From the NCBI GenBank assembly GCA_963755795.1, contig CAVWLI010000017.1, positions 25,262-89,261 on the forward strand: a stretch of DNA of 64,000 bases, in the 5' to 3' direction. The notes beneath the pieces were generated by a model. The model saw only the letters and a list, made by a program, of their open reading frames with translations, made no database searches and was not told the DNA's origin. The translations under genes and the position numbers were made by a program. Below are positions 16,174 through 44,968 of the stretch, in pieces. How positions within the stretch are numbered: the stretch's first letter is position 1; each line of letters begins with the position of its first letter. Origin of the DNA: an uncultured Acidobacteriota bacterium (GTDB taxonomy: Bacteria > Acidobacteriota > Terriglobia > Terriglobales > Acidobacteriaceae).

Positions 16174-18135
16174 TTACTTGATCCGCCCCTTGACTGGGTG
16201 CTGGCCAGACTCAGTGACCGATCCATTCGCATTATGCGCCGTGTTGTGGCACATCAACGTACAAGTGTTGGTGGCGTGGTTGTAGGCGATCGGACTGGCG
16301 CCGTTCTGCCCCACCACATTGCCGTCAAAGTTCACCAGCCGCTCGCCGGTGAAGGTCGGGGAATTGGCGCCCATACCGTGAGCGGTGTGGCATACGCTGC
16401 AGCTGAATCCGTATTGCGAAACGTGCAGGCTGTGCTGGACGAAGCTAGTGTTGGCGAGGATCTGGGTCAGGCTGTGACATTTTCCGCACAGTGCAAACGG
16501 TCCATCCACACTGGTATCAGGATTTGGATAAAGATTCGTAACTAGCTGTCCCGGCGCGGGAGCCTGGCTGAATTCGTAGCGCCGCTCCAGCAGGTGACTC
16601 CACTTCGACCCATGCGGACCGTTGGGGCCCGTGCCGCCGAATTCGCGATTGTCGTCGCTGTTATGGCAATCGGTGCAGAAGATCTGGCTGCCCACCAACC
16701 GCGGGGAAGCCAGGCCAGCCTCAGTCAACATATTCACCAGCAGGCTGGGCTGCGGCAGCGGAGACGTGCTCACGTGGGTTACCGGATGGCTCGAGGTCGC
16801 CGTCGACGCGAATTCCTGCATCACGTTCAGCGGGTCCGGCGCTGCAACTACGCGAATGGCTGGATAGCCGAAGATCGGCAGCCGCTGCTTGCCCATGCTG
16901 CTGCCGTGACAACGCAGACAGGTTTCATATTGATTCACCGCCGGAATCACCGGGGTTATGCCGTCAAGCGCGCTGATTCCGGTCGCGCCCTGCTGCGGAG
17001 GCCGAATCGCTGGCGGTGCCGAAAACGTCACTTCCGCATTGGACGCGTGCGCACTGTGGCAGTCCACGCAGGTGGCGTGGCGATTGTGGTTCAGCAGCGG
17101 AGCCTCGGCGGCGTCGTGGAAATTTACTCCCACCGGCAGCGGGTGGCTGATTTTCGTCTCTTCACTCATGATGTTAGGAGCCGCCGGCGATACATACGTT
17201 CCGCCCGCGTGACAGGTCATGCAGTTCTGCGTAACCGGATCATAGGAAGGAGCCGCCGGCGTGGCTGGACGCAACAACCGGGCGGGCGCAACTGAATTAT
17301 GCGACATGTGACACGAGGTGCAGGCATTCACTCCCACGGTCGGATAAGAGCCGACGTGGCCATCGGGTGAAACCTGATTGGTGGCCGTCTGATGTACGCT
17401 ATTGATGAAGCCGGCGAGTGGATTGATTTGTCCCTGCATCACTCGGTTGGGATCGTGACAGGCGAGGCACATCTGCCCGTTCGAACTGTCTCGTATCAGA
17501 AAATTCTGAGCGATTTTGTCGATCGCCTGAATGTGCGCCGAGTGACAGCTGGTACATTCGATATTTCCGTTGACCAGCTTCACCGCGCCCGTGGGATCGG
17601 CAGTCTTGCCCTGCGACGCCAGCGACGCCACCAGGTTCGCTGCGTCTTTAATCGGCAGCACCAGACTGAACGGATGCGAGCCGGTCAGCGTGGTGCCGAA
17701 CGAATCCGCCGCATTCATCGATCCGACCACCGGCAACGGCCCGTATGCCGCCGATTGTCCGACAGCCACCGTGCCGTCATGACAACTCAAACACAGGTTG
17801 CTCGTTCCTCCCAGCGTGGGTTGCGTGGCCTGAGTGTTTTCGGTCGAACTGGTATACGGCACATACGAACTCTGCGACAACTTCTGGTTCCATAGCGGAG
17901 TAATGCCCCCGATTCCGCTGTGCGGAGCGTGGCAGAACGTGCAACCCAGGCCGCCCTGCGAATACACCGCCGCGCCACTCGATACCGACAGGTTGTGCAT
18001 CCCCAGCACATCCGTGGTAGGCGGAGGCGTCGTTTGGGCAAAGCTCTGGGTGATCAAACTCTGCGTTATCAAAATCTGGGTCACCAGAAATTGGGCTACC
18101 AGGAAAGCGCAGGCAACTGACGGGCGAGTCTTCAC
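16174..18135 (-). CDS. Secreted multihaem c-type cytochrome (11 CxxCH + 1 CxxxCH)
   Basis: ORF 16174..18342. The start is placed at GTG 18135, which overlaps the TGA of the upstream NHL gene (GTGA). Signal peptide VKTRPSVACAFLVAQFLVTQILITQSLITQSFA-QT. Haem motifs are CTFCH, CLSCH, CTSCH, CLACH, CTSCH, CMTCH, CVDCH, CLRCH, CTDCH, CGKCH, CSVCH and CTLMCH. Confidence 0.9.
   Translation of the reverse strand: MKTRPSVACAFLVAQFLVTQILITQSLITQSFAQTTPPPTTDVLGMHNLSVSSGAAVYSQGGLGCTFCHAPHSGIGGITPLWNQKLSQSSYVPYTSSTENTQATQPTLGGTSNLCLSCHDGTVAVGQSAAYGPLPVVGSMNAADSFGTTLTGSHPFSLVLPIKDAANLVASLASQGKTADPTGAVKLVNGNIECTSCHSAHIQAIDKIAQNFLIRDSSNGQMCLACHDPNRVMQGQINPLAGFINSVHQTATNQVSPDGHVGSYPTVGVNACTSCHMSHNSVAPARLLRPATPAAPSYDPVTQNCMTCHAGGTYVSPAAPNIMSEETKISHPLPVGVNFHDAAEAPLLNHNRHATCVDCHSAHASNAEVTFSAPPAIRPPQQGATGISALDGITPVIPAVNQYETCLRCHGSSMGKQRLPIFGYPAIRVVAAPDPLNVMQEFASTATSSHPVTHVSTSPLPQPSLLVNMLTEAGLASPRLVGSQIFCTDCHNSDDNREFGGTGPNGPHGSKWSHLLERRYEFSQAPAPGQLVTNLYPNPDTSVDGPFALCGKCHSLTQILANTSFVQHSLHVSQYGFSCSVCHTAHGMGANSPTFTGERLVNFDGNVVGQNGASPIAYNHATNTCTLMCHNTAHNANGSVTESGQHPVKGRIK
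18046..18105 (-). repeat. Four tandem 15-bp units encoding FLVAQ-FLVTQ-ILITQ-SLITQ within the cytochrome signal peptide
   Basis: Plus-strand units are ctgggtgatcaaact / ctgcgttatcaaaat / ctgggtcaccagaaa / ttgggctaccaggaa. Coordinates were checked by codon arithmetic. Confidence 0.9.
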
Positions 18136-19259
18136 GGTTGTTTCCCCCCGTCCGTTGCAGCTGCGATTCCGTAGTAATGAAACACTTCCACGCGCCGGTT
18201 GAAGGAATCGACCACGTAGATGCGATCGTGCGCGTCGATCTGCAGTCCGGCCGGCAATTGAAACTGTCCCGCTCCAGTTCCCTTTCCGCCGAAGTAATAC
18301 AACAACCGCCCCTGTTCGTCGAAGACCTGCACGATGCTCCACTCGCCGTCGGCAACGTAGAGATGCCCTTCGGAATCAAATCCGATTCCTTTCGGCCGAA
18401 ACATCCATCCCACGCCATCGCCGATCCTTCCGACGGCGTAGCGGAACGTGCCCGCCCGGTCAAAAACCTGCACGCGGAAATTCATGGAGTCGACCACCGC
18501 CAGATCCGTTCCATGCAGCCGCAACTCGGTGGGATAGTTGAACTCGCCTTCGGCGGTGCCCGTCTTTCCAATGGTCTGCAGCACGCTGCCCTGCATGTCC
18601 ATGACGAAAATCTTGTTGCGCAGAGTATCCGTCACGTAAATGCGCTGGGCCGTCGAATCGACCGCAATTCCCGTGGGACGCTTGAAATATCCTTCGCCGC
18701 CCTTCAGGCTTCCAATCACACGGCGATACTTGCCGCTGGGGTCAAAGACAAAAACTTTTCCCGCCAGAGAATCGGTCACATAAATATTGTCCTGTGCATC
18801 CACGGCTACGCACTGCGGCGTGTACATGGGATCTTTCCCCACATCCCGCCGCGAGAGGAACTTGTACTTCTGCTGCACTAAATCGAAAATGTGCACGCCC
18901 CCCGCCGCCAGGTCGGTCACGAGGATGCGCCCGTGCGAATCGGTAACCACGCTGTAGGGGCCAACCAGGTAATGGAAGTCGGGCTGGCCCGCGATCACAT
19001 CCACCACTCGGGTCCAGAAGCTGCGCTTGGGATTGACTTCGCGTTCCAGGCTGAAGCTGCGTTCGAACGAGAGTTTCCGTCCGCCGTCCATCAGCAAATC
19101 GGGCGCCGTCGGCTGCACTTTTTCCTTGCGACTCTTCGCGGTGCGCGCTTGCGCTGGCAAAATCGCCAGCGTCATGGCCAGCAACATCGCCAGTCCGGCA
19201 ACGATCCGGCCCGTGCGCCACGCTGACCTGCGTCGTTGCCCTAGAAGAAGTCGAACCAT
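18132..19259 (-). CDS. NHL-repeat six-bladed beta-propeller protein, secreted
   Basis: Six blades: ILVTDLAAGGVHIFD, IYVTDSLAGKVFVFD, IYVTDTLRNKIFVMD, LAVVDSMNFRVQVFD, LYVADGEWSIVQVFD and IYVVDSFNRRVEVF. Signal/anchor segment IVAGLAMLLAMTLAILPAQA. The ATG at 19259 lies 19 nt inside the 3' end of the barrel gene. Confidence 0.9.
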   Translation of the reverse strand: MVRLLLGQRRRSAWRTGRIVAGLAMLLAMTLAILPAQARTAKSRKEKVQPTAPDLLMDGGRKLSFERSFSLEREVNPKRSFWTRVVDVIAGQPDFHYLVGPYSVVTDSHGRILVTDLAAGGVHIFDLVQQKYKFLSRRDVGKDPMYTPQCVAVDAQDNIYVTDSLAGKVFVFDPSGKYRRVIGSLKGGEGYFKRPTGIAVDSTAQRIYVTDTLRNKIFVMDMQGSVLQTIGKTGTAEGEFNYPTELRLHGTDLAVVDSMNFRVQVFDRAGTFRYAVGRIGDGVGWMFRPKGIGFDSEGHLYVADGEWSIVQVFDEQGRLLYYFGGKGTGAGQFQLPAGLQIDAHDRIYVVDSFNRRVEVFHYYGIAAATDGGKQP

Positions 19260-21091
19260 CGGGTTATTCCAGCAAAGTAAGAGGTAGTATTGGCCGGCGC
19301 TCCCGCCGCGCTGATGCCCTGCGTGAAGCGCGTGTAGCCGGCCTGTACGCCGATCCTGCGTAGATGGTACTGCAATTGGGCGTTGAAGATTTCCGTATTG
19401 TTGTGCGAGACAGTAGAACCCAAAGTGTTGCTGATGGCCCGGGTGAAGCTGCCCGCAATGACCAGTCGCCGGACCAGGTTCGCCGAGATTCCCCCACCGT
19501 AGCTCGATCCGCCAAAAGTGACAAAGTCGCTCACACCCGGCGTTGCAGAAACCGGCACCAATCCACCAGCACCCAGGAGTGATATCCCGGTCGACTGCGT
19601 GTAGTCGCCCGTGAGCGTGAACTTGCGCGATCCCAAGGCCGTCGAATAGGCCTGGCTGCTGCTGTTGGTGCCCTGGTAGTTGGTCAGCCCGCTGTGATTG
19701 CCGTTAAAGGCCGCCGTCCAGTTTAGTCCGGCGGGCAAACGGCGGCGCACGTTCGCGCTGTAGTTGTAGTACGAAGTCGTGTACGTCACCAGCAGAGACT
19801 GCACGTTCTGGGCATAGCTGAATACGCCCGAGGTTTGCCAGCCCGCGAAGCGGTGAAAGAAATTCACGTTGCCGATGAAACCCACCGAATTCGTGCCCTG
19901 GCCGTTGCTGCTGTCGATCACCGAACCAGAAAAGGTGAACATGTCGAAAATCCGTTTTCCGTAGTTCACCGTTCCACTCAGGTAAGTACCCGTGTAAGTC
20001 TTTCCGAAATATTCCTGGTCGTAATACGTCGCTTGTGACGACACCCCCAGATTGTTCGTGATCTGGTAGTTCGCGCCTCCCCCGAGGGTCGAGGAGTGCG
20101 CGCCCGATCCCAGGTTGATTCCCGGTACGATGGTTCCACTGGGGCTCAGGCTCTGCGCCAGGTACCCGTTCAGATTGCTGGTGTAATTCTCGGTGACGTT
20201 CAGCGAGAGTTTCTGCGTGGGGTGAAAGGTGGCGCCGGTGTTGACGATGTCATCGGTGTAGTGCGACGCATCGGAATTCTGCCCCGTGCTCGAGAAGTAG
20301 TTGCTGTCGGCGGATGACCGGTCGAAATTCGCAAAAAACTGGCCGCTCAGAGGCAAGGCGTGCTGCACTCCGAGTCCCACGTCATTTCCTGTCGAATCCT
20401 GCACTGACTCCGACTGTCCTGCCAGAAACTCAGGGAACTTAGAGTTCAAGCTGTTGCGGTCGTAGAAGCTATTCAGACGAAATCCCGCGATTTGGTAGCC
20501 CGAGCGCACGTTAAACAGCCGTGTGCTCGAAGTCGTTTCCTCGTTTGTGCCGTAAATCGTGCCGCTGCCTCCGCCCTGCGAATACCCCACCGTGAGAGTC
20601 GGCAGGTCCGGTACCAATGCGCTCCAATTGATCGCGAATCCCTCGCCCTTTCCCACGGTCGTGAAGTTGGGCTGTCCGGCCACTCCAAAAGTCCCGGTGC
20701 TATTGCGGTCGTAGCGATAGCTCACCGATCCCGGAAAATGGCTGCCCGAGAAGAAGTTCGCAGTCCCGTTGATTCCGGTCGCGCCGGTCAGCGATTGATA
20801 GGTCGAGTCGTCGCGCGATTGGTTGTAGTAGGGCTGAGCCGTGAACGACAAGAAATTAGGGTTGTAGTAGTAGCCCGAGATCTTGCCGTCGATTCCCCCG
20901 GTCAATCCGTGGTCCGAGGAAATGTCGTTGCCATAATCGCCGCTGTAGCCGAAGCTAAACAGGCCGCCGGCCGTCAGCCTGGTGTTTTCGCCGATGCGAA
21001 GTTCAGGAGTTTGCGATTGCGGCTGCTGCCCGCAGACGAGTTGCGCCATCATCAGCACCGCGAGTCCGAGGATGACATTCCTGCCCTGCAT
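19241..21091 (-). CDS. Predicted outer-membrane beta-barrel (porin-like), ~590 aa mature
   Basis: ORF 19241..21169 with a likely ATG at 21091 (MQGRNVILGLAVLMMAQLVCGQQ signal peptide). The sequence is very G/S/T/Y/N-rich with alternating hydrophobic pattern and almost no Cys. The C-terminus ...GITRWFDFF has a terminal Phe, a typical OMP beta-signal. Confidence 0.7.
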   Translation of the reverse strand: MQGRNVILGLAVLMMAQLVCGQQPQSQTPELRIGENTRLTAGGLFSFGYSGDYGNDISSDHGLTGGIDGKISGYYYNPNFLSFTAQPYYNQSRDDSTYQSLTGATGINGTANFFSGSHFPGSVSYRYDRNSTGTFGVAGQPNFTTVGKGEGFAINWSALVPDLPTLTVGYSQGGGSGTIYGTNEETTSSTRLFNVRSGYQIAGFRLNSFYDRNSLNSKFPEFLAGQSESVQDSTGNDVGLGVQHALPLSGQFFANFDRSSADSNYFSSTGQNSDASHYTDDIVNTGATFHPTQKLSLNVTENYTSNLNGYLAQSLSPSGTIVPGINLGSGAHSSTLGGGANYQITNNLGVSSQATYYDQEYFGKTYTGTYLSGTVNYGKRIFDMFTFSGSVIDSSNGQGTNSVGFIGNVNFFHRFAGWQTSGVFSYAQNVQSLLVTYTTSYYNYSANVRRRLPAGLNWTAAFNGNHSGLTNYQGTNSSSQAYSTALGSRKFTLTGDYTQSTGISLLGAGGLVPVSATPGVSDFVTFGGSSYGGGISANLVRRLVIAGSFTRAISNTLGSTVSHNNTEIFNAQLQYHLRRIGVQAGYTRFTQGISAAGAPANTTSYFAGITRWFDFF

Positions 21092-21347
21092 TTTCGCCGC
21101 TACCCTTCTGGCCAGAGGCTCAGAAAACCCGCTTGCACTTACTGGTTGAGGAGGCACAACAGTTGCCAAACTCGCGGCGAATGAGGACTTTCCAATCTGT
21201 TGAAAACAATATCGTTACGCCTTCATTAGGAGGGAGGGTTTGAGCTGAAATTCGCGCCGGTGCGGCATATCACCCGGCTTGCGAGTTGAAATCCACAACC
21301 GCCCGAACAGCGCCGCTGTCGTCCAAAACCAAAGACCTGTACAAAGC

Positions 21348-21388
21348 GAAGGACCTGTGCAATCGGCGGAAGATTGCACAGGTCCTTC
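21348..21388 (-). terminator. Strong hairpin (16-bp perfect stem, 9-nt loop) 28 nt after the PPIase stop
   Basis: GAAGGACCTGTGCAAT-cggcggaag-ATTGCACAGGTCCTTC read directly. On the minus strand it is followed by a partly T-rich tract (GCTTTGTACAGGTCTTTGGTTTTGG). Confidence 0.55.
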
Positions 21389-21415
21389 GTTTCTCTCAGC
21401 ATCACAAAACGCTGA

Positions 21416-22438
21416 TTAGACTTCCTCAATCCTAGCCTTTGCCCGTAATTGCTTCGCCAGGCCAGACCGCAGTTTGTCGTACTTGCTCTTCTGCAAATTC
21501 GTTTTCAGATCGTTCTTGACCTCGGCGAACGGGCGTTTGCGCGACGGAGTAAATGCAGTCGCCCGCACGATGGTGAATGCGGTTTCAATCTGGATCAGCC
21601 CGCTCACGCCGCCCGGCCCGGCTGCCCGCAAAGCTTTAACCACCTGCGGCGGCAACTTGTCGGCCGTCACAACTTTGTGGTCACCCATGTTCACCCGGAA
21701 ATCATCCTCGGAGATCTTCTCCGCCAGCAATCCAAATTGCTCGTAGGTCTTGGCGGCCTTCGCCTGCACCAACGCCGCTTCCGCCCGCTTTCTGGCATCT
21801 TTTTCCTGATCCGGCGTCGCCTTCAGCGGAGGAACGATGGAGATGCTCTGGAACCCGAAAGACTCCGGCTGCTGGAATTGCCCCGGATTCTTGGCGTAAT
21901 ACGCCTGAAGCTCGGCCAACGAAACCGCCGACTTATCTTCCACATCGGTTTTCAGAACCTGCTCAATCAGCAGCGAGCGCTTCATCTGTTGCCGCAGTTT
22001 TTGCTCGGAACCCTGCATCTCAGTCTGCAGGTATTGCTGGTATTGGTCCGGACTCTTAAACTGGCCGCGAAATTCGGTCGCGGCGTGATTCAGCTTTTCG
22101 GGCGAAACTGTCAGCTTCCGCCGCACCGCTTCCTGATACACCAGTTCCTCGAAAATAATCATCTCCAGCGCACCTTGCCGGATCTCCGCTTCCTGCGCTT
22201 TGGGAAAGCCGTTGTGCTGTTGCGCGTAGGGAAAGATGGTGTACATCTCGCGCAGCAGATCCCGATCGGTCAACACGGCACCGTTAACCCTGGCAACCGG
22301 CTTCTCACTCGCCTGCAAGGTTGAGGTCTGGGCAGACGCGGTGTTTGTGAGCACGGTCGGCGTATGCGAAGCCACTTGGGCTGATGCCGCCGAGAGTGCC
22401 AGTGCCAGAAATCCGCAGATGGAGAGTTGGTATTTCAT
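21416..22438 (-). CDS. Periplasmic SurA/PpiD/PrsA-like chaperone with PpiC (parvulin)-type PPIase region
   Basis: Signal peptide MKYQLSICGFLALALSAASAQ. It has a SurA-N-like helical domain (ARVNGAVLTDRDLLREM...) and the long coiled helical middle typical of this family. The parvulin call is from overall similarity, not a strict motif. Confidence 0.8.
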   Translation of the reverse strand: MKYQLSICGFLALALSAASAQVASHTPTVLTNTASAQTSTLQASEKPVARVNGAVLTDRDLLREMYTIFPYAQQHNGFPKAQEAEIRQGALEMIIFEELVYQEAVRRKLTVSPEKLNHAATEFRGQFKSPDQYQQYLQTEMQGSEQKLRQQMKRSLLIEQVLKTDVEDKSAVSLAELQAYYAKNPGQFQQPESFGFQSISIVPPLKATPDQEKDARKRAEAALVQAKAAKTYEQFGLLAEKISEDDFRVNMGDHKVVTADKLPPQVVKALRAAGPGGVSGLIQIETAFTIVRATAFTPSRKRPFAEVKNDLKTNLQKSKYDKLRSGLAKQLRAKARIEEV

Positions 22439-22545
22439 ATTGCCTCGCTCGGTTCCTCGCTTGCTAACTTCTACTCACCTCGTGACCGGCTCGAATAAAA
22501 AAGGGGAGAGTCGATCCTCTCCCCTTCTTGCACATCATCCAACGT

Positions 22546-23457
22546 CTACTGGAAGACCGTCGTGATGTTGTTGGTGTTGTTGGCTTCGTTCGACTCGCCA
22601 AAGTGGCACTGGCGGCAGAACTGCGTGGTCGAAGGAGCATTGGTATTGGCCACGTTGTTGATGTTCGGGTTGTAGGGGCCGTTCACGAAGAAATAGGTGG
22701 CGTAATAGCCGGTCGCATTTCCCGCGATCGGGCTGGCTGCGCTGGCCGTATAGACAGTCATCACGTGCTGGTTGTGGCAAGTGGTGCAGAGCACGTAGGG
22801 AGCATTTGTGGCGGTGAGACCATAGGGCTTAGACCATTTCCCAGGCGCCAGTGCTGGCCAGCCATAGTTGGCTACGAACTGAGCATACGGGGAGCCGGGG
22901 GTTACTGTCAGTGCGCCAGCAGTGTTCACCAAGCCGCTGCCAGTGCTGATGATCGCCAACTGGCCCACCGGGTGGTCGTTGGTGTAGTTGCCGCCCGTCG
23001 TGCCGTCGTTGCCGAGCAGGGTGGGGATCTTACCGGTTCCGTACGAGGTATTCGTCAGCAGGCCGATCCGCTGTTCGTACGATTGGTTGACCATCATGTT
23101 GCTGGCCGTGACGTTGCCGTCATGGCAGCTCAGGCAGAGCAGGATGCCGCCAACTTCTTGCGACCCAGTCGAGATGCTGGCAGGCAGAACTTCGGTATAT
23201 TTCCCGCCATCGCCGAATGCGATCGTCTTGCTGTACAGGGGGCTGGCGTCCTGTCCCCACAATGCATAGCTACCAGTATCAGCGGCGCCGGCGTGGCCGG
23301 AACCGAAAGAGCCGCTGTGCGGTGCGTGACATCCAGCGCAGCCGCGGCCGTTATTATTGTGGGCGCCCAGTACGTCAACCGGCGATGACCAGTTCTGCGC
23401 CATCGCGAAGCTCCCGACCGCCAGAACGAACAGTGCAACTAAAAGCGCTTTCTTCAT
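22546..23457 (-). CDS. Secreted tetrahaem c-type cytochrome with low haem density
   Basis: ORF 22546..23493 with a likely ATG at 23457 (MKKALLVALFVLAVGSFAMAQ). Haem motifs are CAGCHAPH, CLSCHDG, CTTCHNQH and CRQCHFG. The long spacers are G/S/T/N/A-rich. Confidence 0.85.
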   Translation of the reverse strand: MKKALLVALFVLAVGSFAMAQNWSSPVDVLGAHNNNGRGCAGCHAPHSGSFGSGHAGAADTGSYALWGQDASPLYSKTIAFGDGGKYTEVLPASISTGSQEVGGILLCLSCHDGNVTASNMMVNQSYEQRIGLLTNTSYGTGKIPTLLGNDGTTGGNYTNDHPVGQLAIISTGSGLVNTAGALTVTPGSPYAQFVANYGWPALAPGKWSKPYGLTATNAPYVLCTTCHNQHVMTVYTASAASPIAGNATGYYATYFFVNGPYNPNINNVANTNAPSTTQFCRQCHFGESNEANNTNNITTVFQ

Positions 23458-23897
23458 AAAATTCCACGACCTCCATGAAAAATGTTTTGCCACTTCTTAA
23501 TAAACTCTCAGAGGCTTAGGCCGTGGGCTGCGTCTTGTGCCTGGGCACTCGGCGTAGCCGCCTCTCAGCTTCTGTTAGTGCAACTGGCCGCCCGAAACCC
23601 CAGGCCGCCGGCGATTTCCTTGAATCTCTTGTAAATTATTGAATTAACTAATCTTAAGCTCGAGGCACCCGACAGCAGATCTCTGGAAAACTCCTCAACA
23701 CTGGGGGAAAACAACCACTTGGCGGCCCCGCTTGGTCAAATTACCCAGTTGTAAGAAACCGCAACAGAGCTGTTGCAAAACTCAGCAGCCGACCGCGCGC
23801 TATCCGTGCATCAAGAATCGGTGTGAGGAATTTTCTTGCGTTGCCGCCGGCAGAGACGGAGCAACCACGTCCTCGACGGATGGGATCTTCATCTCGG

Positions 23898-25160
23898 CTA
23901 CTTGCTGGGCGGGACTTTGGCTTCCGGCGCTGCGGGCGGCGACAGTGGGACAACCTCTTTGTTGCCCGCCGCTTTCTTGGCCCGCTGCTCTTCTTTGTCC
24001 TTGCGCGCCTGCTCAGCCTCGGCGTCGGTCACGTAGCGGAATTGTTGCACGCGTCCGGGATAGATTTCCGAGGTGAAGACGCGGTTGTTCTTATCGGTCG
24101 CAATATTCACGATCCCCTGAAACTGGCCCGGCAGCAGGCCGTGGCCACCGAATGAAATCAGCAGATGCGCGTCCTGGTTGTAGACCTGCACCCGGTCCTG
24201 CACGCCGTCGGCAACCCAGATGTGGTTATCACTGTCGATCGCGACCCCTTTGGGCCGCGAGAAGTATCCCGGGCCATCGCCCGCCTTGCCGAACGTGCTG
24301 ATGAATTTTCCGTCGGCGTCAAAGATTTCTACGCGGTTGTTCAGCGTATCGCAGACATAGAGGTTGCCTTCTGCATCGACCGCCAGTCCGGACGGCCTGG
24401 CGAAATCTCCAGGACTGGTGAGCTCATGGTGGTGTCCGGTGGTGCCGATCTTGCGCAGCAGTTTGAGTGAGTCGGCGTCATACACCAGCACCTGATCAAG
24501 CTCGATGTCGGACACATAAAGCAGCCGGTTCTCGCGATCGATGGCCAGCGAGCCGGGTTCGACCAGTCCCTCAGTGATCACATCCTCCGCAACATGGGCG
24601 GGGTTGAAGACCAGAACATGGCGCAAGCCAGGGTCGGACACGAACAGACGATCGTTGTCGTCCATGGCCAGCCCGATGATGCGGACGAAGTGGGCGTGCG
24701 CCTTGTTCTTGATCATGTCAAGATCGTGCGTCTCGGTGTTGAAAATAAAGATGGCGCCGACCTTCTGATCCGCGATGTATAGGTTGTTCTTGGAATCGAC
24801 TGCGAGGCCGTAGGGCTCGGCCAGTTGGTACAACACCTTTGCTTCGCTCTGTGGCTGCGTGCCCGCCAGGCGGTCCATCCATTTCGCTTTTTTGCTGTCG
24901 TTCCCCGCCTCGACCTGCGAGATCTTTTCCGCCGCAAAGAATCCCGTGTAGCGAATGCGCGCAATGGCCGGAGGATTCGGCCACACAATGTTCGAATAAT
25001 CAATGACGGGAACCTTCTTGGCCGTGTCCGTCTTCTTTTTGCCGGCAAATGCGGAGATGGGCGCCAGCAGAGCCAGGCCGACCATAAGACACACGACAAG
25101 TCGCGGGCGACGGTCGGCTGAGCCCGCGCTGATGGCAGACATGCTTTTCATTTTCCTCAT
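23898..25160 (-). CDS. NHL-repeat beta-propeller protein, secreted, with K/P/A/E-rich C-terminal tail
   Basis: ORF 23898..25229. The ATG at 25160 is preceded by GGAGAA. Signal peptide LVVCLMVGLALLAPISAFA. Blades are LYIADQKVGAIFIFN, LFVSDPGLRHVLVFN, LYVSDIELDQVLVYD, LYVCDTLNNRVEIFD, IWVADGVQDRVQVYN and VFTSEIYPGRVQQF. Tail sequence: EAEQARKDKEEQRAKKAAGNKEVVPLSPPAAPEAKVPPSK. Confidence 0.85.
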   Translation of the reverse strand: MRKMKSMSAISAGSADRRPRLVVCLMVGLALLAPISAFAGKKKTDTAKKVPVIDYSNIVWPNPPAIARIRYTGFFAAEKISQVEAGNDSKKAKWMDRLAGTQPQSEAKVLYQLAEPYGLAVDSKNNLYIADQKVGAIFIFNTETHDLDMIKNKAHAHFVRIIGLAMDDNDRLFVSDPGLRHVLVFNPAHVAEDVITEGLVEPGSLAIDRENRLLYVSDIELDQVLVYDADSLKLLRKIGTTGHHHELTSPGDFARPSGLAVDAEGNLYVCDTLNNRVEIFDADGKFISTFGKAGDGPGYFSRPKGVAIDSDNHIWVADGVQDRVQVYNQDAHLLISFGGHGLLPGQFQGIVNIATDKNNRVFTSEIYPGRVQQFRYVTDAEAEQARKDKEEQRAKKAAGNKEVVPLSPPAAPEAKVPPSK

Positions 25161-25229
25161 CTTCGTTCTCCTGGTTCTCCTGCGACGTCTCTCATGCGAA
25201 CTTTCTCCCCGCAAACTTCCTGGTTGCAA

Positions 25230-26672
25230 CTATCGCTTCGTCAGATCCTTGTGACAGCTGGCGCAGAATTGCGCGTTGTTCACCTGGTCCTTCGCCAGCA
25301 GGTCGGGCTGCGCCGAGGAATGCGGCTGATGGCAGGATAGGCAGTCGATCTTCGCGATTATCTTGGTGACGTTCGAGGGATCAACTACATCGGAGATGGG
25401 GTGGCCTGCGATCGGATGCCCGCGCCCGAACTTTATGGGCAGCACCACGACTTTATTCTTGGTGAAGTAATCCTCTGGCAGCCGCACGGTTCCGTTGAAA
25501 ATCGTGAGCAGGTGCTCGGCTTCGAGCTTTTTCGGCTCCGCGTCAGGGCCGTGACATTCCAGACACAGTCCGTTCGTACTCTTGCTGCGCAGCAAGTGAT
25601 CGTTGTCGCCGCCGTGGGGCTCGTGGCAGGTGGCGCATCCCTGCTTGAACGCGGGCTGATGCAGAAAGTGTTTCTTGCCCTGCTCGGCCTGGTCGCTGTG
25701 GCAGGTCAGGCAGATGTCAACTGCATTAGTCCTGGGCAGGCCGGGCTGGCGGCTGGCATGCGGATTATGGCAGTCAGTGCACTCTCCGGCCGCGCCGGGA
25801 TGCGGCACTCTCGCCTTTTCAATGTTCTCTGCCACGTCGCTATGGCAGGTGACGCAGATCGACTTCACGTCGGCTTGCACGAGGACTACTTTGCCGTCCT
25901 TGGCCGGCGCGTGGCACGTGTCACAAGATTTCTCGGCGAACGGAGGATGCAGGAACTGCCGCATTAGCTTGGGGACGGCCGACTGATGCGGATCGTGGCA
26001 ACTGGTGCAATCCGCGGTGGCGAAAGGCTGGTTGTGATGCGCCTTCTGCAGGCTCGCGTCTTTGACGTCGTGGCAATCAACGCACAGCGCCGGAGCGGCC
26101 TTGGTCAAATGAAAATCAAACTCGGGTTTACCCACTTCTCCGGTCTTGTGGGTGATGTGGCAGGTGTCACAGCCCATATCGAGCGCAGCATGGCGGCTGC
26201 CTTTTTCCGGAACGTTCAACCCCTGGGTGTGGCACTCGAGACAAAGATTCTGGCTTTTGTCGCCCGACTCAGGCTTCAGCAACTGATTCTTGTTGTCGCT
26301 GGTATGCGGGTCGTGACACTTAATGCAGTCGCGCACGGCCGGAGGATGCACCGTCCCTTTTAGAGTGGAAGCGTCTTTGTCGGCGTGGCAGGTTAGACAA
26401 AGCGCCTGCGGAGTCGAGGTGATCAGCTTGATCCGCGTGACGTCTTTATTGACCCGAACTTCATGACAGCTGAGGCAGCCGGTGGCAATCGCCGAATGCA
26501 CCGCCTTGCCCTTCGTCTTATCCTCGTGGCACTCGAGACACTTCGCCGAATCCACATTCTTGTCGAGCGGAACCGGATGTTCCTTGGCCCATGCTGGCAT
26601 TGCTGCAATCACGAAGAAGAATGCCAGCCAAGAGAAACGGGGGAGGGCTGCGATGCTTGCGTTCCGGCTCAT
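25230..26672 (-). CDS. Periplasmic/secreted 16-haem c-type cytochrome (c3/c7-like modular)
   Basis: ORF 25230..26741 with a likely ATG at 26672 (MSRNASIAALPRFSWLAFFFVIAAMPAWA). I counted 16 canonical CxxCH motifs in ~450 mature residues, many as CxxCHDPH/CxxCHxxH. Confidence 0.9.
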   Translation of the reverse strand: MSRNASIAALPRFSWLAFFFVIAAMPAWAKEHPVPLDKNVDSAKCLECHEDKTKGKAVHSAIATGCLSCHEVRVNKDVTRIKLITSTPQALCLTCHADKDASTLKGTVHPPAVRDCIKCHDPHTSDNKNQLLKPESGDKSQNLCLECHTQGLNVPEKGSRHAALDMGCDTCHITHKTGEVGKPEFDFHLTKAAPALCVDCHDVKDASLQKAHHNQPFATADCTSCHDPHQSAVPKLMRQFLHPPFAEKSCDTCHAPAKDGKVVLVQADVKSICVTCHSDVAENIEKARVPHPGAAGECTDCHNPHASRQPGLPRTNAVDICLTCHSDQAEQGKKHFLHQPAFKQGCATCHEPHGGDNDHLLRSKSTNGLCLECHGPDAEPKKLEAEHLLTIFNGTVRLPEDYFTKNKVVVLPIKFGRGHPIAGHPISDVVDPSNVTKIIAKIDCLSCHQPHSSAQPDLLAKDQVNNAQFCASCHKDLTKR

Positions 26673-26941
26673 AGAAGTACGATTTTGAAATACTGGGACC
26701 ATTGCCAACCGTTGCACTTGCACGATCCTCGCCTTCCGCACTCGAAAGCACCGCAGATTTTTACCGGGCTGTAAATTATTGCAACAATTCGTCTTCCAAT
26801 CTATTGCGTGACCGGAGAAGATTCTGCTGAGCCGGACTGAACGTTTCCAAAATGGGCCTTCTGCCTCACTCAGTCGGTGAAATCACGCACGCTTCTGTTG
26901 CGCGGTGAAGCCAAGTGGTTCCGCCTTATTTTGCAGCCATT

Positions 26942-26957
26942 TGTGATTGAAATCACA
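26942..26957. promoter_or_regulatory. Perfect CRP/FNR-family palindrome TGTGA-TTGAAA-TCACA
   Basis: Read directly and checked by codon arithmetic from 26877. It lies in the divergent intergenic region, 178 nt upstream of the ccsB ATG (27135) and 270 nt upstream of the 16-haem cytochrome ATG (26672). It also fits the FNR form TTGAT-N4-ATCAA with one mismatch per half-site. Confidence 0.45.
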
Positions 26958-27134
26958 CGCTTTCCCCTGTGGGTGAAATCGCAGCAAACCCTTGCAAGAA
27001 TGAGTGTTATGGCTCACGCGAGCCGCTCGACCGACCCCCTCTTTCAGACTCACTCCGTTGATAACACACGACTTCAAGGCAAATCCCAACGTTGGCGCGG
27101 AACGTGCATTGCTCCAAGTGAGAAGAGGAACGTC

Positions 27135-28607
27135 ATGCCACTGTCACTGCTCGCGGCGCCCCGAAAAATCTGGCAGACCCTCAGTTCCATCAAAACCGGA
27201 GTCGTTCTCATTATTCTGGTCGTCATCTTTTCGGCGGCGGGCACAGTTATTTTGCAACGTCCCATGACCGACGCCGACGATATGGAGCGCGCTTATTCGC
27301 CGTCGATGCTGCGCTTTCTCGACGCCACCGGCCTCACCGACGTTTTTCACACCCGCTGGTTCGTAGCTCTGTTAATTCTGGTGTGCTTCAGCATCATCGC
27401 CGCCTCGGTGCAGCGCTTCCCCAACGCCTGGCGATATTTCGCGCGTCCTTATAAGAGTCCCGACGAAAACTTCCGCAAAGCTCTGCCCATGCAGGCCCAG
27501 TTTGCGCTCGCCCGTAACGACGAAGAACTCGGACTGAGCGCCGCCGAACGCGCCTTCAAGCACCTTGGACTAAAAACAGAGCGCATCGTACGCACCAACA
27601 GTTTCTCGCTGTTCTCGGAGCGCAGCCGCATCTCCGAGATGGCGGTCTACATCGTTCATGCCAGCCTGCTTCTGATCTTTACCGGCTTCATCGTGGACTC
27701 GCTCTATGGCTGGCGCGGATTCCTGATGCTGACTCCAGGAACCGCCAGCAACCAGATCGAAATGAAAAACGGCTCGCTGCGGACGATTCCCTTCTCCATC
27801 CGCTGCGACGGAACCGGCGAGGAAACCTATGCCGACGGCACGCCCAAGAAATATTGGTCGAAGCTCGCGGTGGTGGACGGCGGACAAGAAATTTCCCGCA
27901 AAGAAATCGTGGTCAACGATCCGCTGGTCTATCACGGGCTCCGTTTCTATCAGGCCAGTTACGGCCGCACCGGCAAGCTCGATCAACTGATCCTTGACGC
28001 GACTCCAGCCAACAACGTCGCCAGCACTCCGCAGCAAATTTCTCTCGCCATGAACCAGACCGTGCCGCTCGACCCCGACACCACCGTGCAACTGGTGGAG
28101 TTCATCCCCGATTTCGTGGTGGAGGACGGCCGGGTCTTCACCCGCAGCAAAGACATTGTGAATCCCGCGGTTCACATCATCGTGACTTCAAAGAAAGCGA
28201 ATAGCAGCGTGAATGTATGGCTGCCTCCCATGCCGGGCATCGACGAGAACGCATCCTCCCCCTACACCTTCGACCCGAAAGACTTGAAGACCGGTGTCTA
28301 CACGGGACTGCAGGTTTCGCACGAACCCGGCCAGTGGGCGGTGTGGGCCGGAGTCGTGCTCATGGCCATCGGCCTGACCTTTGTTTTCTATGTGGTTCAC
28401 ATGCGCTTCTGGGTTGTCCCGGTACGCGACGCGCAGGGCGGCACGGTGCTGTGGGTTGGCGGCACGGCCAACCGCAATCGCGACGCCTTCGAAATGAAGT
28501 TCAAAACTGTGGTCGAGCAGATTCAGAAAGAACTCAAGCCCGCAATGGCCTCGGCTGCGCCGCCGGATGTAGCAACGATCTCTAGAACAACCATCGCCGG
28601 ACGCTGA
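27135..28607 (+). CDS. ccsB: Cytochrome c biogenesis protein ResB/CcsB (System II)
   Basis: ORF 26877..28607. The ATG at 27135 is preceded by AGAGGAA. N-terminus KIWQTLSSIKTGVVLIILVVIFSAAGTVILQRP, a large periplasmic loop and a C-terminal TM segment. It is followed 22 bp later by ccsA. Confidence 0.88.
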   Translation: MPLSLLAAPRKIWQTLSSIKTGVVLIILVVIFSAAGTVILQRPMTDADDMERAYSPSMLRFLDATGLTDVFHTRWFVALLILVCFSIIAASVQRFPNAWRYFARPYKSPDENFRKALPMQAQFALARNDEELGLSAAERAFKHLGLKTERIVRTNSFSLFSERSRISEMAVYIVHASLLLIFTGFIVDSLYGWRGFLMLTPGTASNQIEMKNGSLRTIPFSIRCDGTGEETYADGTPKKYWSKLAVVDGGQEISRKEIVVNDPLVYHGLRFYQASYGRTGKLDQLILDATPANNVASTPQQISLAMNQTVPLDPDTTVQLVEFIPDFVVEDGRVFTRSKDIVNPAVHIIVTSKKANSSVNVWLPPMPGIDENASSPYTFDPKDLKTGVYTGLQVSHEPGQWAVWAGVVLMAIGLTFVFYVVHMRFWVVPVRDAQGGTVLWVGGTANRNRDAFEMKFKTVVEQIQKELKPAMASAAPPDVATISRTTIAGR

Positions 28608-28628
28608 GTCCGGCAACGGAGGAAATGT

Positions 28629-30026
28629 ATGGCACGCGCAAACGTTGAACAGCATCCCGCGACCGGAACCACCATGATCGTGATGGTGGGGTTGGGAATG
28701 GCTTTCCTGCTGTTCATGGCTTTTCTGAATGTGGCGAAGAGCGGAAATATTCTGAGTGAAGCCAACTTCTTATTTGCCGCCCTGGTTTTCTACTCGGGCG
28801 CGGGAGCGTTATATCTGGGCTTTGGCGTAACCGGGACTGAATCCTACATCAAGTACGCTTCCCTCATGACCTGGGCAGGCCTGCTGGCCAACACCGCGGC
28901 CGTTGCCCATCGCTGGTACGAAGCCGGACATCCTCCGTTCGCCAGCATCTATGAAATGCTGCTGAGTTTTGTGTGGACTTTAGCTGCGCTCACCCTGATC
29001 GCGGAAAAACGCTATGGCGTGAAAGTCATTGGCACGGTCACCATGCCGGTTGCGATTGTCGGCGTCATCCTGATGCAGCTTCTGCCTAGCGAAGTTCGCC
29101 CGCTGGTTCCGGCACTTCAATCCACTTGGCTGCACGTCCACGTGACCCTGGCCATGCTGGCCTATGCAGCGTGTGCGCTGAGCTTTGCGCTGGCCATGAT
29201 GTTCCTGATCCAGGACAAGGTGAAGACGGAACTGTTTCTGGCCGCCACCAGCATATTCACGGTCGGAATTTATGGCGCGGTCCTCACCCGTTTCGAAAAA
29301 TGGGGCGGCCTCAACGTAATCGCATGGAACGCTCAAAATAAAGCAGAAGTGTTCGTCTCGCGCGGCGTCAGGCTCTTCGTCACGATTCCCGACCTCGGCT
29401 GGCTGATGCTTCTGGTCTTCGCCGCTGTGCTGGCTCCGCTGGTACTCTTCGCCCTTTCGCGAATCAAGAAGAATGCAGCCCTGCTGGCGGTGGCCGATCG
29501 CGCAGTCTTCGTCAGCATTCTGCTGCAAATCCTGGCCCTGGCATTTTTCCTGGTGCGCGTGCGCGGCGGACAATATCCCTCCCTCGATGCCGACGGCTTG
29601 TACGCCACGAGTCTGGCGGCAAGCCCGTTCATTCTCTCCGCGCTGGTGGGCGGTATCTTCGCCAATCTTCTCTATCTCCTATTGCTCTGGCGGCGCGCCG
29701 ATCTCGAACGCCTTCTCCCCGACGCCGACACGCTCGACCGCATCACTTACAAAACAATTTGCATTGCCTTCCCCCTACTCACCCTGATGATCGCCGCCGG
29801 CGCCTACTGGGCTAACCGGGCCTGGGGCTCCTATTGGAATTGGGATCCTAAAGAGACGTGGGCGGCGATTACTTGGCTGGTCTATGCCGGCTATCTGCAC
29901 ATGCGCATCACTCGCGGCTGGCGCGGACGCCGTGCCGCCTACTTCGCCATCCTGGGATTCGCGGTGGTGATGTTCACCTTCTTCGGCGTCACTTATTTAT
30001 TGCCTGGATTGCATGCGTATGCCTGA
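28629..30026 (+). CDS. ccsA: Cytochrome c-type biogenesis protein CcsA (haem handling, WWD motif)
   Basis: Polytopic protein. It carries the W-rich motif WGSYWNWDPKETWAAITWLVYAGYLH and conserved His residues. Confidence 0.9.
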   Translation: MARANVEQHPATGTTMIVMVGLGMAFLLFMAFLNVAKSGNILSEANFLFAALVFYSGAGALYLGFGVTGTESYIKYASLMTWAGLLANTAAVAHRWYEAGHPPFASIYEMLLSFVWTLAALTLIAEKRYGVKVIGTVTMPVAIVGVILMQLLPSEVRPLVPALQSTWLHVHVTLAMLAYAACALSFALAMMFLIQDKVKTELFLAATSIFTVGIYGAVLTRFEKWGGLNVIAWNAQNKAEVFVSRGVRLFVTIPDLGWLMLLVFAAVLAPLVLFALSRIKKNAALLAVADRAVFVSILLQILALAFFLVRVRGGQYPSLDADGLYATSLAASPFILSALVGGIFANLLYLLLLWRRADLERLLPDADTLDRITYKTICIAFPLLTLMIAAGAYWANRAWGSYWNWDPKETWAAITWLVYAGYLHMRITRGWRGRRAAYFAILGFAVVMFTFFGVTYLLPGLHAYA

Positions 30027-31284
30027 GACTATGACGCCACCACTGGATCGGCATATTCCGGCTGAAGAGGTCCCCGCCGCTTCGCGCTTCCGTACCGGCT
30101 TTTTCAGTACGGCGTATTCGAGTGCAGCTGCGCTGGCCAACCCGATTTCAACCGGAGCCGATGATCGTGCGAAGGCCCCTGCGGCAGAGGATCCCGAGTC
30201 GCCCTGGCTAAGCATCACATGGGAGATCAAGGCGCTGGTTCCGATCGCCTGCGTGCTCCTCGGCGGAATGTTGCTGTTTCTTCTCGCCACGCTCTCCTGG
30301 CGCGATCCCGAACGTCATCTCGTGCTCCTGGTCGCAGGTTCAGGAGCAGTCGCGATTTGCGGCGCACTGCTGGTCGTGCTCACCTACACCGTGCAGCGCC
30401 CAATGGTCGAACTGCAGCAGAAAATCGCGCAACTCGGCGGTGGCGATCTGAACGTAGCCGTCAGTTTTTCTCACCGCAATGACGAGATCGGTGACCTCGG
30501 CCGCAACTTCAACCAGATGGTGGTGCAACTGCGCGAAAGCCGCGCCGAAATTGAACGCCTGCACCGCACCCAAATGTCGCGCGCCGAGCATCTGGCCACT
30601 CTCGGAGAAATGGCCACCGGACTGGCCCACGAAATCCGCAACCCCTTGGCGGGGATTGCCGGCGTCATTGAAATCATTGGCCGCGACTTGCCGTCAACCA
30701 GCCCGGCGCGCGCCGTGGTCAAAGACGTTCGCCAGGAAATTGCCCGCATCAATCACATCGTCACCGACCTGCTGCAAACTGCGCGGCCGCATCCGCCCAC
30801 CGTCCGCAAGAGCGATTTGAATACCACCGTCGAACATGCCGTCATGCTCGGCCGCCAGCAGGCAATGGCAAAGTCTGTTGAGATCGAACTACACAAAAAC
30901 TCCACCCTGCCCGAAGTGGAGCATGACGGCGATCAGATTCACCAAGTGCTGCTCAACCTGCTACTCAATGCACTGCAGGCTCTCGATTCTTCAGCGAGCG
31001 GCCATACTGGAAAGATTACGGTCACTGTCAGGCACCAGGGAAACGCCGCAGTCGTCGAAGTTTCCGACAATGGTCGCGGCATCGCCCCCGATCATCTACC
31101 CAACATCTTCCGCCCCTTCTACACCACCAAAGGCGACGGCACCGGCCTGGGATTGTCGTTGGCCCGCCGCATCGTCGAAGACCATCACGGCCGCATCGAC
31201 GTCTCCAGCACCCTCGGCAAAGGCACTACCTTCGCTGTCGTGCTCCCGTTGCAGAGAGCTGCGGTGCCAACCTCCGGCTCTTAG
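30013..31284 (+). CDS. Sensor histidine kinase (2 TM, HAMP, HisKA, HATPase_c)
   Basis: It overlaps the ccsA 3' end by 14 nt. HAMP region (GGDLNVAVSFSHRNDEIGDLGRNFNQMV), H-box LAHEIRNPL, N-box LLNLLLNALQA, G-boxes DNGRGI and GTGLGLS. The start could be one of several nearby ATGs. Confidence 0.85.
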   Translation: MRMPETMTPPLDRHIPAEEVPAASRFRTGFFSTAYSSAAALANPISTGADDRAKAPAAEDPESPWLSITWEIKALVPIACVLLGGMLLFLLATLSWRDPERHLVLLVAGSGAVAICGALLVVLTYTVQRPMVELQQKIAQLGGGDLNVAVSFSHRNDEIGDLGRNFNQMVVQLRESRAEIERLHRTQMSRAEHLATLGEMATGLAHEIRNPLAGIAGVIEIIGRDLPSTSPARAVVKDVRQEIARINHIVTDLLQTARPHPPTVRKSDLNTTVEHAVMLGRQQAMAKSVEIELHKNSTLPEVEHDGDQIHQVLLNLLLNALQALDSSASGHTGKITVTVRHQGNAAVVEVSDNGRGIAPDHLPNIFRPFYTTKGDGTGLGLSLARRIVEDHHGRIDVSSTLGKGTTFAVVLPLQRAAVPTSGS

Positions 31285-44648: not shown

Positions 44649-44968
44649 TGGGACTTCCTTAGTCCTTTCAACATCCCGTAGCGGCCTCTTCGTCATCATA
44701 TTCCCACGCGGGGGTGAATCCTTCAAACGAGCGAGGTGCGCTTAAGCCTAAGAATCGCAAGGGGAAACTAATACGGAATCTCACAGAAACATCCATAAAT
44801 ACATAGTTGGCGTTCGAAAATGCATCTATAATTTCGGAAGTGGTTTTAGATAATGGACTTAGCCTTCCGGGAATGGGAACTGACGTGGCAGCGAAGTTGC
44901 TCATAAAGGATCGGTGGGACACGTCTGCCACGGCGCCAAGGCCAAGTGGAGAGACGCTGCCGAAGCCC

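Follow-up and report, generated by a model that had tools for sequence, protein, structure and literature searches.

The closest described counterparts of the locus reported here are the cytochrome nanowire clusters of the Desulfuromonadia. In the minimal omcE cluster, the gene for the OmcE subunit is accompanied by those for two multihaem cytochromes, two beta-propellers and a large beta-barrel, and the region in which omcE clusters lie starts with resB and ccsB (Petersen et al., bioRxiv 10.1101/2025.10.22.684050). In the same study, eight conserved histidines were described for the four haems of OmcE homologues, a nearby barrel and propeller served as the criterion for nanowire-competent homologues, and canonical omcE operons offered no candidate for the initiating or terminal unit of the filament. 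Two filament structures are used for comparison: 9YUQ, the cryo-electron microscopy structure of bundled OmcE filaments of Desulfuromonas soudanensis from that preprint, and 7TFS, the OmcE filament of Geobacter sulfurreducens. The present analysis concerns seven minus-strand genes, three of them for multihaem cytochromes, in a 64,000-nucleotide stretch of DNA from an uncultured member of the Acidobacteriaceae (GenBank assembly GCA_963755795.1, contig CAVWLI010000017.1, forward-strand positions 25,262 to 89,261). This whole stretch is referred to as the window, and all positions are counted from its first nucleotide.

Shen et al. in 2025 are said to have described an omcS-companion (osc) cluster in G. 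sulfurreducens. In it, OscH is an isomerase for folding, OscE/F/G act in secretion and OscD in morphology (PMC13194489). Within the Acidobacteriota, a system named EET1 was reported in May 2026 (Fiorito et al., bioRxiv 10.64898/2026.05.27.727921). Its three core genes encode an MtrB-like porin, a scaffold of the NHL/DUF5128 type and a large extracellular cytochrome resembling OmcE. EET1 was found in Terriglobales and UBA7540 in 49 metagenome-assembled genomes (MAGs) of that study and transcribed throughout peat profiles, with near-identical matches in SPRUCE and Stordalen MAGs. The AlphaFold 3 (AF3) model of the porin matched MtrB with a template modelling (TM) score of 0.48, and the large cytochrome was predicted to be extracellular, its AF3 model giving a TM of 0.70 against 7TFS. 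The multimer models resembled Mtr-like conduits, and the core was reported without experiments. The word 'nanowire' is absent from the main text; in the supplement, OmcE filaments were noted and long-distance transport was proposed.

Between positions 16174 and 26741 of the window, listing and translation of the open reading frames (ORFs) gave seven consecutive, co-directional ORFs on the minus strand, named here in order of transcription cyt16, NHL1, cyt4, PPIase, barrel, NHL2 and cyt12. A first-pass annotation, made from the sequence alone, had placed seven consecutive minus-strand genes at these positions, with which the ORF listing agrees, and its count of 31 CxxCH motifs plus one CxxxCH for the operon was reproduced. 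In the rest of the window, six-frame segments of 100 aa or more held three CxxCH motifs only (the set comprised 49,324 residues including the operon genes), and the haem-motif density of the operon is far over background. The same annotation had assigned signal peptides to all seven products and recognised cytochrome, NHL and SurA/PpiC domains. By a simple heuristic, a basic n-region followed by a hydrophobic stretch was present at all seven N-termini, a shape kept in the orthologues of the five families inspected, and the domain assignments agree with Pfam and NCBIfam searches. The stated lack of a catalytic or quinol-dehydrogenase signature was also borne out: CxxCK was absent from the seven operon products, and no molybdopterin, iron-sulfur (FeS), NrfD, NapC or CymA-type protein was found among the window ORFs scanned with Pfam. 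The seven genes form a conserved unit across Terriglobia, and two of the three operon cytochromes, cyt4 and cyt12, are OmcE homologues.

The gene cyt4 (22546..23457, minus strand; ORF 22546-23493, likely start 23457) encodes a secreted tetrahaem cytochrome of 303 aa with four CxxCH motifs. More than 4900 homologues were found, the best 120 of them 79-89% identical, and the full-library search returned 378 cluster representatives. A plain sequence search of the PDB with cyt4 matched a single entry, 9YUQ (E 7e-6), and a family profile (39 sequences, 33-85% identity) matched 9YUQ at E 2e-11 and 7TFS at E 3.8e-4. A hidden Markov model (HMM) of the OmcE family, built from 119 homologues of D. soudanensis OmcE, scored 46.5 bits against cyt4, and hhalign of cyt4 gave 99.4% with the OmcE family and 99.3% with the N-terminus of cyt12. 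The haem motifs lie at C40, C108, C224 and C281. Besides the CxxCH histidines exactly four more are conserved, H33, H47, H162 and H231, and motifs and histidines are invariant or conserved in at least 94% (39-78 sequences). A motif DVLG[AM]H ahead of the first haem is shared by cyt4 and cyt12. OmcS was not among the PDB matches of the cyt4 and cyt12 profiles, with E allowed up to 1-10. On sequence comparison, cyt4 is a diverged OmcE paralogue and a homologue of the filament-forming OmcE. Its 303 aa exceed the approximately 200-245 aa of the small stand-alone OmcE-type precursor; it has insertions, and its haems 3 and 4 are spaced further apart. Additional cyt4 paralogues, 25-78% identical to that of the window, occur in several species, in tandem in loci L029 and L043 and after cyt12 in L056, L062, L063 and L064 (L-numbers denote related loci fetched from other genomes), which suggests diversification of the subunit.

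The product of cyt12 (16174..18135, minus strand; ORF 16174-18342, conserved GTG start 18135) is a secreted protein of 653 aa with 11 CxxCH motifs and one CxxxCH. The OmcE-family HMM matched its residues 46-228 over HMM positions 26-210 of 211 (87.2 bits, E 8e-28), hhalign of the N-terminus against the OmcE family gave 99.9%, and the cyt12 family profile matched 7TFS_A over residues 9-231 of 232 (E 8e-20) and 9YUQ (E 3.5e-16). Within this module the haem motifs at 65, 115, 194 and 223 are accompanied by H47, H72, H154 and H201; all 12 haem motifs of the protein are kept in 63 orthologues. Its OmcE homology is closer than that of cyt4. By homology and motif count, cyt12 consists of a full OmcE-like tetrahaem head and a tail of approximately 425 residues with eight more haems. 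The tail resembles paired-CxxCH rods, with hhalign values of 97.9% against cyt16 and, for the 8-haem cytochrome of canonical omcE clusters, of 94.5% over 85 columns. A reading of the C-terminus as more OmcE modules (hhalign 82-89%) is not claimed, as these matches were short and driven by the haem motifs.

A scan of one genome per GTDB species yielded 377 loci with relatives of cyt4, the best 80 of which were examined by tblastn of the window proteins. Nearly all of these 80 belong to Terriglobia MAGs (Ca. Sulfotelmatobacter, Acidoferrum/Acidoferrales and Korobacteraceae), and their sources include SPRUCE, Stordalen and Microflora Danica. The order cyt16-NHL1-cyt4-PPIase-barrel-NHL2-cyt12 is retained in about 50 Terriglobia species genomes, which makes the gene set syntenic in relatives, and it persists in loci whose identity falls to 45-51% for cyt4 and to 31-41% for the barrel. 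The idea that the genes form a horizontally acquired 'island' was rejected, the GC content being uniform and the flanking TPR/SGNH and MBOAT pair being syntenic in many relatives. Among the operon cytochromes cyt16 is the most conserved (64-92% identity); barrel, cyt4 and cyt12 diverge fastest. This pattern matches that of Geobacter, in which outer-surface cytochromes evolve faster than periplasmic ones, though periplasmic shuttles evolve fast too (PMC12977616). A Terriglobia-type cyt4 was also seen in bins labelled Verrucomicrobiia (L016, 74% identity) and Eisenbacteria (L067, 47%); L016 keeps the Terriglobia-type synteny and L067 (6.9 kb) carries cyt4 and the TPR/SGNH gene only, and either mis-binning or horizontal transfer would account for them.

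For comparison, homologues of D. soudanensis OmcE led to four canonical omcE loci (L081, L083, L085 and L086). In these, ResB-CcsA is followed by a 19-21-haem cytochrome, NHL, an 8-haem cytochrome, NHL, OmcE, a barrel of 750-785 aa and glycosyltransferases. The gene content of the window operon equals that of the minimal omcE cluster of Desulfuromonadia: tetrahaem OmcE modules with four CxxCH motifs and four extra ligand histidines, two other paired-CxxCH multihaem cytochromes, two NHL propellers and one large beta-barrel. Adjacency to resB/ccsB is likewise shared, being found here and in most related loci and also in L081. The NHL proteins and cyt16 of the window matched their canonical counterparts at E 1e-47 to 1e-60, about the level of generic NHL or paired-CxxCH similarity, and orthology to these counterparts is therefore not proven by the scores. 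The gene order is different, the barrel family is unrelated by sequence and the propellers lack a lipobox. The operon has a SurA-like isomerase, which all four canonical loci lack, one of its OmcE modules continues into an 8-haem extension, and the free tetrahaem protein is approximately 80 aa longer than OmcE. The adjoining glycosyltransferase island is replaced here by the MBOAT and TPR/SGNH pair. The Acidobacteriota lie outside the five phyla listed by Petersen et al. (bioRxiv 10.1101/2025.10.22.684050). The osc cluster is a similar set in which a prolyl isomerase, channel- or propeller-type proteins and paralogous cytochromes accompany a nanowire-type cytochrome; the cytochromes of the window differ in being of OmcE type with 4, 12 and 16 haems, not OmcS-type hexahaems. 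The operon is of a known kind, the nanowire-type cytochrome clusters, and differs by its unrelated barrel, the fusion of an OmcE head with an 8-haem tail, the enlarged free tetrahaem subunit and the in-cluster isomerase.

The first gene of the operon, cyt16 (25230..26672, minus strand; ORF 25230-26741, likely start 26672), encodes a secreted protein with 16 CxxCH motifs, apparently an MtrA/DmsE-like rod of paired CxxCH units. Paired_CXXCH_1 was found in eight stretches (E 3e-68), and TIGR03508 (DmsE family) reached 195.0 bits against a cut-off of 192.2, over four repeated stretches of the 16-haem protein. The 16 motifs are conserved throughout 60 orthologues, as are 33 His. The protein is a probable periplasmic or barrel-inserted wire. 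TIGR03507, the model for MtrC/OmcA-type surface decahaem cytochromes, reached 35.5 bits only against a cut-off of 209.

The barrel gene (19241..21091, minus strand; ORF 19241-21169, conserved start 21091) encodes a protein of 616 aa ending in RWFDFF. No relative was found for it in Pfam, NCBIfam or PDB sequences, even with a diverse profile, and Pfam was also null in 24 family members; its homologues number 1386 in a set of 5.8 billion proteins, and the named ones are Terriglobia. The protein is rich in G, S, T, N, Y and F, Cys-free, and aromatic at its terminal residue, the only feature shared with the barrels of canonical omcE clusters (616 aa vs 750-785 aa). An AlphaFold 2 (AF2) model was calculated from a shallow alignment of 29 sequences, 70-88% identical. 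With this model, of predicted local distance difference test (pLDDT) 44, all matches listed by Foldseek were outer-membrane barrels, MtrB (6R2Q_B) being the first (E 8e-8, TM 0.29), a result that backs only the class 'outer-membrane barrel'. Because of its signal peptide, its composition, the terminal aromatic residue and an all-beta model with barrel matches, the 616-aa protein is likely a large outer-membrane barrel of about 24-28 strands, in line with the outer-membrane beta-barrel predicted at 19241-21091 by the first-pass annotation. A count of dyad amphipathicity on the barrel alignment was dropped, as it did not separate the barrel from control proteins.

Both propeller genes encode secreted NHL proteins. 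NHL1 (23898..25160, minus strand; ORF 23898-25229, likely start 25160) is a six-bladed beta-propeller with Pfam matches to NHL and DUF5128 and a poly-Lys stretch after the signal peptide; its similarity to the NHL proteins of canonical omcE clusters (E 1e-47 to 1e-58) is about that of generic NHL proteins (ScyF, 129-162 bits). NHL2 (18132..19259, minus strand) is an NHL/DUF5128 beta-propeller in which DUF5128 is the top Pfam match (E 2.5e-25; NHL E 7e-23), and its MV[RQ]xLL start is conserved in orthologues. The PPIase gene (21416..22438, minus strand) encodes a secreted SurA_N plus PpiC-type rotamase (Rotamase_2 E 1e-17, SurA_N_3 E 5e-13) and always follows cyt4. The cyt4-PPIase pair stands alone in L087, L088 and L089 (10001-12016), which are one 7.2-Mb Terriglobia MAG and two related contigs; there it lies beside the hydrogenase maturation genes hypF/C/D/E, and no barrel, NHL or large cytochrome gene was found within 10 kb. 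The pair is a separable module, as are OmcS and OscH.

Several features of the DNA bear on the expression of the operon. The intergenic region upstream of cyt4 (23458..23897, minus strand, 440 bp) has a GGAGG ribosome-binding site and a few conserved blocks; in an alignment of 26 loci these include AACTGxGxxATTTxACC and a CAGCCC...GGCC element, and a start region GGAGGT-N-TTTTATGAAGAAA is conserved at cyt4. The region presumably holds a promoter of cyt4's own. A terminator-like hairpin (22497..22524, minus strand), in which GGGGAGAG and CTCTCCCC enclose a loop and are followed by T6, lies 21 nt past the cyt4 stop codon. Of 77 related loci, 60 have an equivalent hairpin (dG <= -8 kcal/mol) directly before a T-run, and distant loci whose cyt4 is 45-50% identical are among them. 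In the promoter and terminator scan overall counts were at chance, and the cyt4 hairpin alone stands out, through its conservation. The conserved hairpin after cyt4, its own upstream region and the strong GGAGG site lead us to infer that cyt4 is produced in larger amounts than the products of the downstream genes, as would befit a major structural subunit. Downstream, the NHL2 start overlaps the barrel stop codon by 19 nt and the GTG start of cyt12 overlaps the NHL2 stop codon; these start/stop overlaps suggest that barrel, NHL2 and cyt12 form a stoichiometric unit. Sigma-54 consensus matches were at chance level, with no site upstream of cyt4, and Rfam gave no match in 14-33 kb.

By its gene content, the barrel-NHL2-cyt12 part of the operon is very probably the same system as EET1. 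Common to both are the adjacency of the three genes, DUF5128 in NHL2, an OmcE-like large cytochrome and the occurrence in Terriglobales, and SPRUCE and Stordalen MAGs are also sources of loci L001, L004, L029 and L053. The EET1 representative has 13 loosely defined haem motifs, as against 12 in cyt12, and the preprint describes a three-gene core only, as an Mtr-like conduit, as against seven genes here. In the passages of the preprint consulted there is no mention of the tetrahaem paralogue and its terminator, the isomerase, ResB-CcsA or a link to nanowire-assembly clusters; cyt16, NHL1 and the kinase do not appear in them either, although no search was aimed at these three. The statement of the first-pass annotation that no system of such composition had been described in Acidobacteriota does not hold, since EET1 matches the barrel-NHL-large cytochrome core and had already been described in Terriglobales. 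New here are the OmcE homology of cyt4 and of the cyt12 head, the seven-gene order in about 50 Terriglobia genomes and the cyt4 terminator.

An outer-membrane electron conduit or cytochrome-filament system, akin to the surroundings of the Geobacter nanowire genes, had been suggested from the outset, and this reading gains support from the OmcE homology of two cytochromes, the omcE-cluster gene content, the isomerase as a parallel to OscH, the synteny in relatives and the all-beta barrel model with its outer-membrane matches. The operon, conserved in Acidobacteriota of peat and soil, most probably serves to move respiratory electrons to the outside of the cell. In our judgement there is about an even chance that the operon encodes a Terriglobia extracellular electron-transfer system built on OmcE-type cytochromes, with cyt4 as the polymerising protein, cyt12 as a minor component at the barrel, cyt16 as a periplasmic or trans-barrel wire, the isomerase and the propellers acting in folding and assembly, and ResB-CcsA attaching haem. 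The same even odds apply to its being the equivalent, in Acidobacteriota, of the omcE (and omcS-companion) nanowire clusters known from Desulfuromonadia. We infer localisation, polymerisation, electron path and acceptor as follows. Haem would be attached in the periplasm with the help of the adjacent ResB-CcsA, and the SurA-like isomerase would fold the coil-rich, proline-rich cyt4, as proposed for OscH with OmcS. The cyt16 rod would receive electrons from an inner-membrane quinol oxidase and pass them to or through the barrel, which, with the NHL propellers as assembly scaffolds, would export and/or anchor the OmcE-type proteins. Made in excess, cyt4 would polymerise head-to-tail into an OmcE-like haem wire, and cyt12 would be a minor component associated with the barrel. 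The terminal acceptors would be insoluble, for example Fe(III) minerals or redox-active organic matter of the peat. A bolder version, speculative and rather unlikely, makes cyt12 the base of the nanowire: its OmcE-like head would template the polymerisation of cyt4, and its 8-haem MtrA-like tail, in or through the barrel and held by NHL2, would anchor the filament to the outer membrane and wire it to the periplasm. If true, cyt12 would supply the initiating or terminal unit missing from canonical omcE operons and would show how filament and cell are connected.

Several observations weigh against a filament of this kind. No filament has been seen from any member of the Acidobacteriota, and a sequence does not reveal polymerisation. 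With approximately 80 residues more than OmcE, the free tetrahaem protein aligns well only over its first 165 or so residues, and its haem-free AF2 model is mediocre (pLDDT 65) and found no Foldseek match in the PDB, an outcome that is uninformative and no true negative. The AF2 model of the barrel is poor (pLDDT 44), all-beta with 24 long strands after the signal helix, and no homology of the protein to the barrels in canonical omcE clusters was detected (nothing in hmmsearch with a 63-sequence HMM; hhalign 0.2%). By inspection, the signal peptides of NHL1, NHL2 and their orthologues are of the Sec type and lack a lipobox Cys, whereas the propellers of canonical clusters are lipoproteins. An inner-membrane quinol oxidase was not found encoded near the operon among the window ORFs scanned. 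An abundant periplasmic shuttle would be just as compatible with high expression and fast evolution (PMC12977616).

The main alternative, possible but more tentative, is a non-filamentous conduit of the Mtr/Pcc type, in which cyt16 would lie inside the barrel, cyt12 would be a monomeric surface cytochrome held by NHL2, and cyt4 would be an abundant soluble periplasmic shuttle, like PpcA or STC, feeding the complex, with no polymer formed; this is essentially the reading of EET1 by Fiorito et al. As in MtrCAB, Pcc and Ext, an apparently MtrA/DmsE-like multihaem rod and a probable large outer-membrane barrel are encoded with putative surface cytochromes, and cyt16 does reach the DmsE/MtrA cut-off (195.0 vs 192.2 bits). 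MtrB is the top fold match of the barrel (TM 0.29 here; 0.48 in Fiorito et al., where the multimer models are also Mtr-like), tetrahaem OmcE-like proteins are widespread and not all of them are expected to polymerise, and periplasmic shuttles are likewise highly expressed and fast-evolving (PMC12977616). However, cyt4 and cyt12 fall into the one family that has two filament structures, and the composition is that of nanowire clusters, with two propellers and a dedicated prolyl isomerase that are foreign to the Mtr, Pcc and Ext loci. The operon also has neither an MtrC/OmcA-type surface cytochrome (TIGR03507, 35 bits vs 209) nor an MtrB/PioB-family sequence signature, and cyt16 differs from the rods of those conduits in its 16 haems and in not being adjacent to the barrel.

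The same hardware might also run in the reverse direction, with electrons taken up from Fe(II), reduced humics or a partner cell, as by MtoAB and PioAB. Multihaem wires are reversible in principle and the sequence sets no direction; some related genomes are named Ca. Acidoferrum, and the cyt4-PPIase pair lies beside hydrogenase maturation genes in L087-L089. This explanation is nevertheless improbable, given that EET1, according to Fiorito et al., is expressed into deep anoxic peat together with organic-matter degradation and anaerobic respiration and is read as electron disposal, and that the characterised OmcE systems are all in metal or electrode reducers. The remaining explanation, a purely periplasmic network for electron storage or transfer in which the beta-rich protein is an unrelated, co-located nutrient porin, would agree with a barrel family that has no annotated relative. 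It is very improbable in the face of the position of the barrel gene, which lies within the operon and shares an overlap with NHL2, itself overlapping with cyt12, of a gene order conserved over about 50 species, of the extracellular location of the OmcE relatives of solved structure, and of the predicted extracellular location of the large EET1 cytochrome in the same preprint. Both the reverse direction and the purely periplasmic role are less likely than the OmcE-type extracellular system or the Mtr-like conduit.

Divergent from the operon lie a ResB gene (26877..28607, plus strand; PF05140, E 4e-82; System II cytochrome c maturation), a gene for CcsA/ResC, the haem-handling subunit of System II (28629..30026, plus strand; TIGR03144, 250 bits vs a cut-off of 188; PF01578), and a gene for a HAMP-HisKA-HATPase sensor kinase (30013..31284, plus strand), the start of which overlaps the end of ccsA by 14 nt. 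These matches agree with the ccsB-ccsA pair and histidine kinase of the first-pass annotation. The Pfam match of ResB begins at residue 106, and the true start is therefore probably further in than 26877. In most related loci the three genes (HK-CcsA-ResB) are divergent from the operon and the kinase adjoins CcsA. It is plausible that ResB-CcsA is dedicated to the operon, described earlier as having 'its own' pair; ccmABCEFGH were recorded in EET1-bearing MAGs by Fiorito et al. (bioRxiv 10.64898/2026.05.27.727921), so that with ResB-CcsA there would be two maturation systems, this one possibly dedicated. The kinase at 30013-31284, co-transcribed with ResB-CcsA, has no response regulator gene next to it; a PDZ-GAF-PAS kinase and a sigma-54-dependent response regulator are encoded 15 kb from it at 44807-49253 (plus strand). 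Directly after the kinase gene, at 31495-32334 (minus strand), a secreted protein of 279 aa without Pfam match is encoded, with two internal repeats of approximately 100 aa (...YHYPRTTTLIWNPV... and ...FDHYPRTITLSWKMV...).

Beyond the other end of the operon, a TPR plus SGNH/GDSL-like protein is encoded at 14007-15737 (minus strand; about 33 of the 80 related loci) and an MBOAT O-acyltransferase at 11981-13432 (plus strand; about 16 of the 80). Glycosylation genes fill the corresponding position in canonical omcE clusters, and it is possible that the TPR/SGNH and MBOAT genes modify exported proteins or the envelope. Of the three CxxCH motifs outside the operon, two (CAFCH and CWNCH) belong to a 188-aa ORF at 3252-3818 (minus strand) with an N-terminal transmembrane helix and no Pfam match, which may be a membrane-anchored dihaem protein, and the third sits in a TPR protein at 661-3234.

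The fusion of an OmcE head with an 8-haem tail, together with the start/stop overlaps that tie cyt12 to the barrel gene, is a candidate for the anchoring and feeding of a filament, an open question in Petersen et al. (bioRxiv 10.1101/2025.10.22.684050). The compact, well-conserved seven-gene set suits the heterologous reconstitution of nanowire assembly. That this kind of system is known, and that its core in Acidobacteriota was reported very recently, tempers the value of the finding. In peat and acidic soils, Terriglobia such as Ca. Sulfotelmatobacter belong to the dominant bacteria. If a conserved and expressed OmcE-type system holds for them, cytochrome-based extracellular respiration of humic or particulate organic matter or of iron would be mainstream in soil and not a Geobacter speciality, with a bearing on the excess of CO2 over methane from peat.

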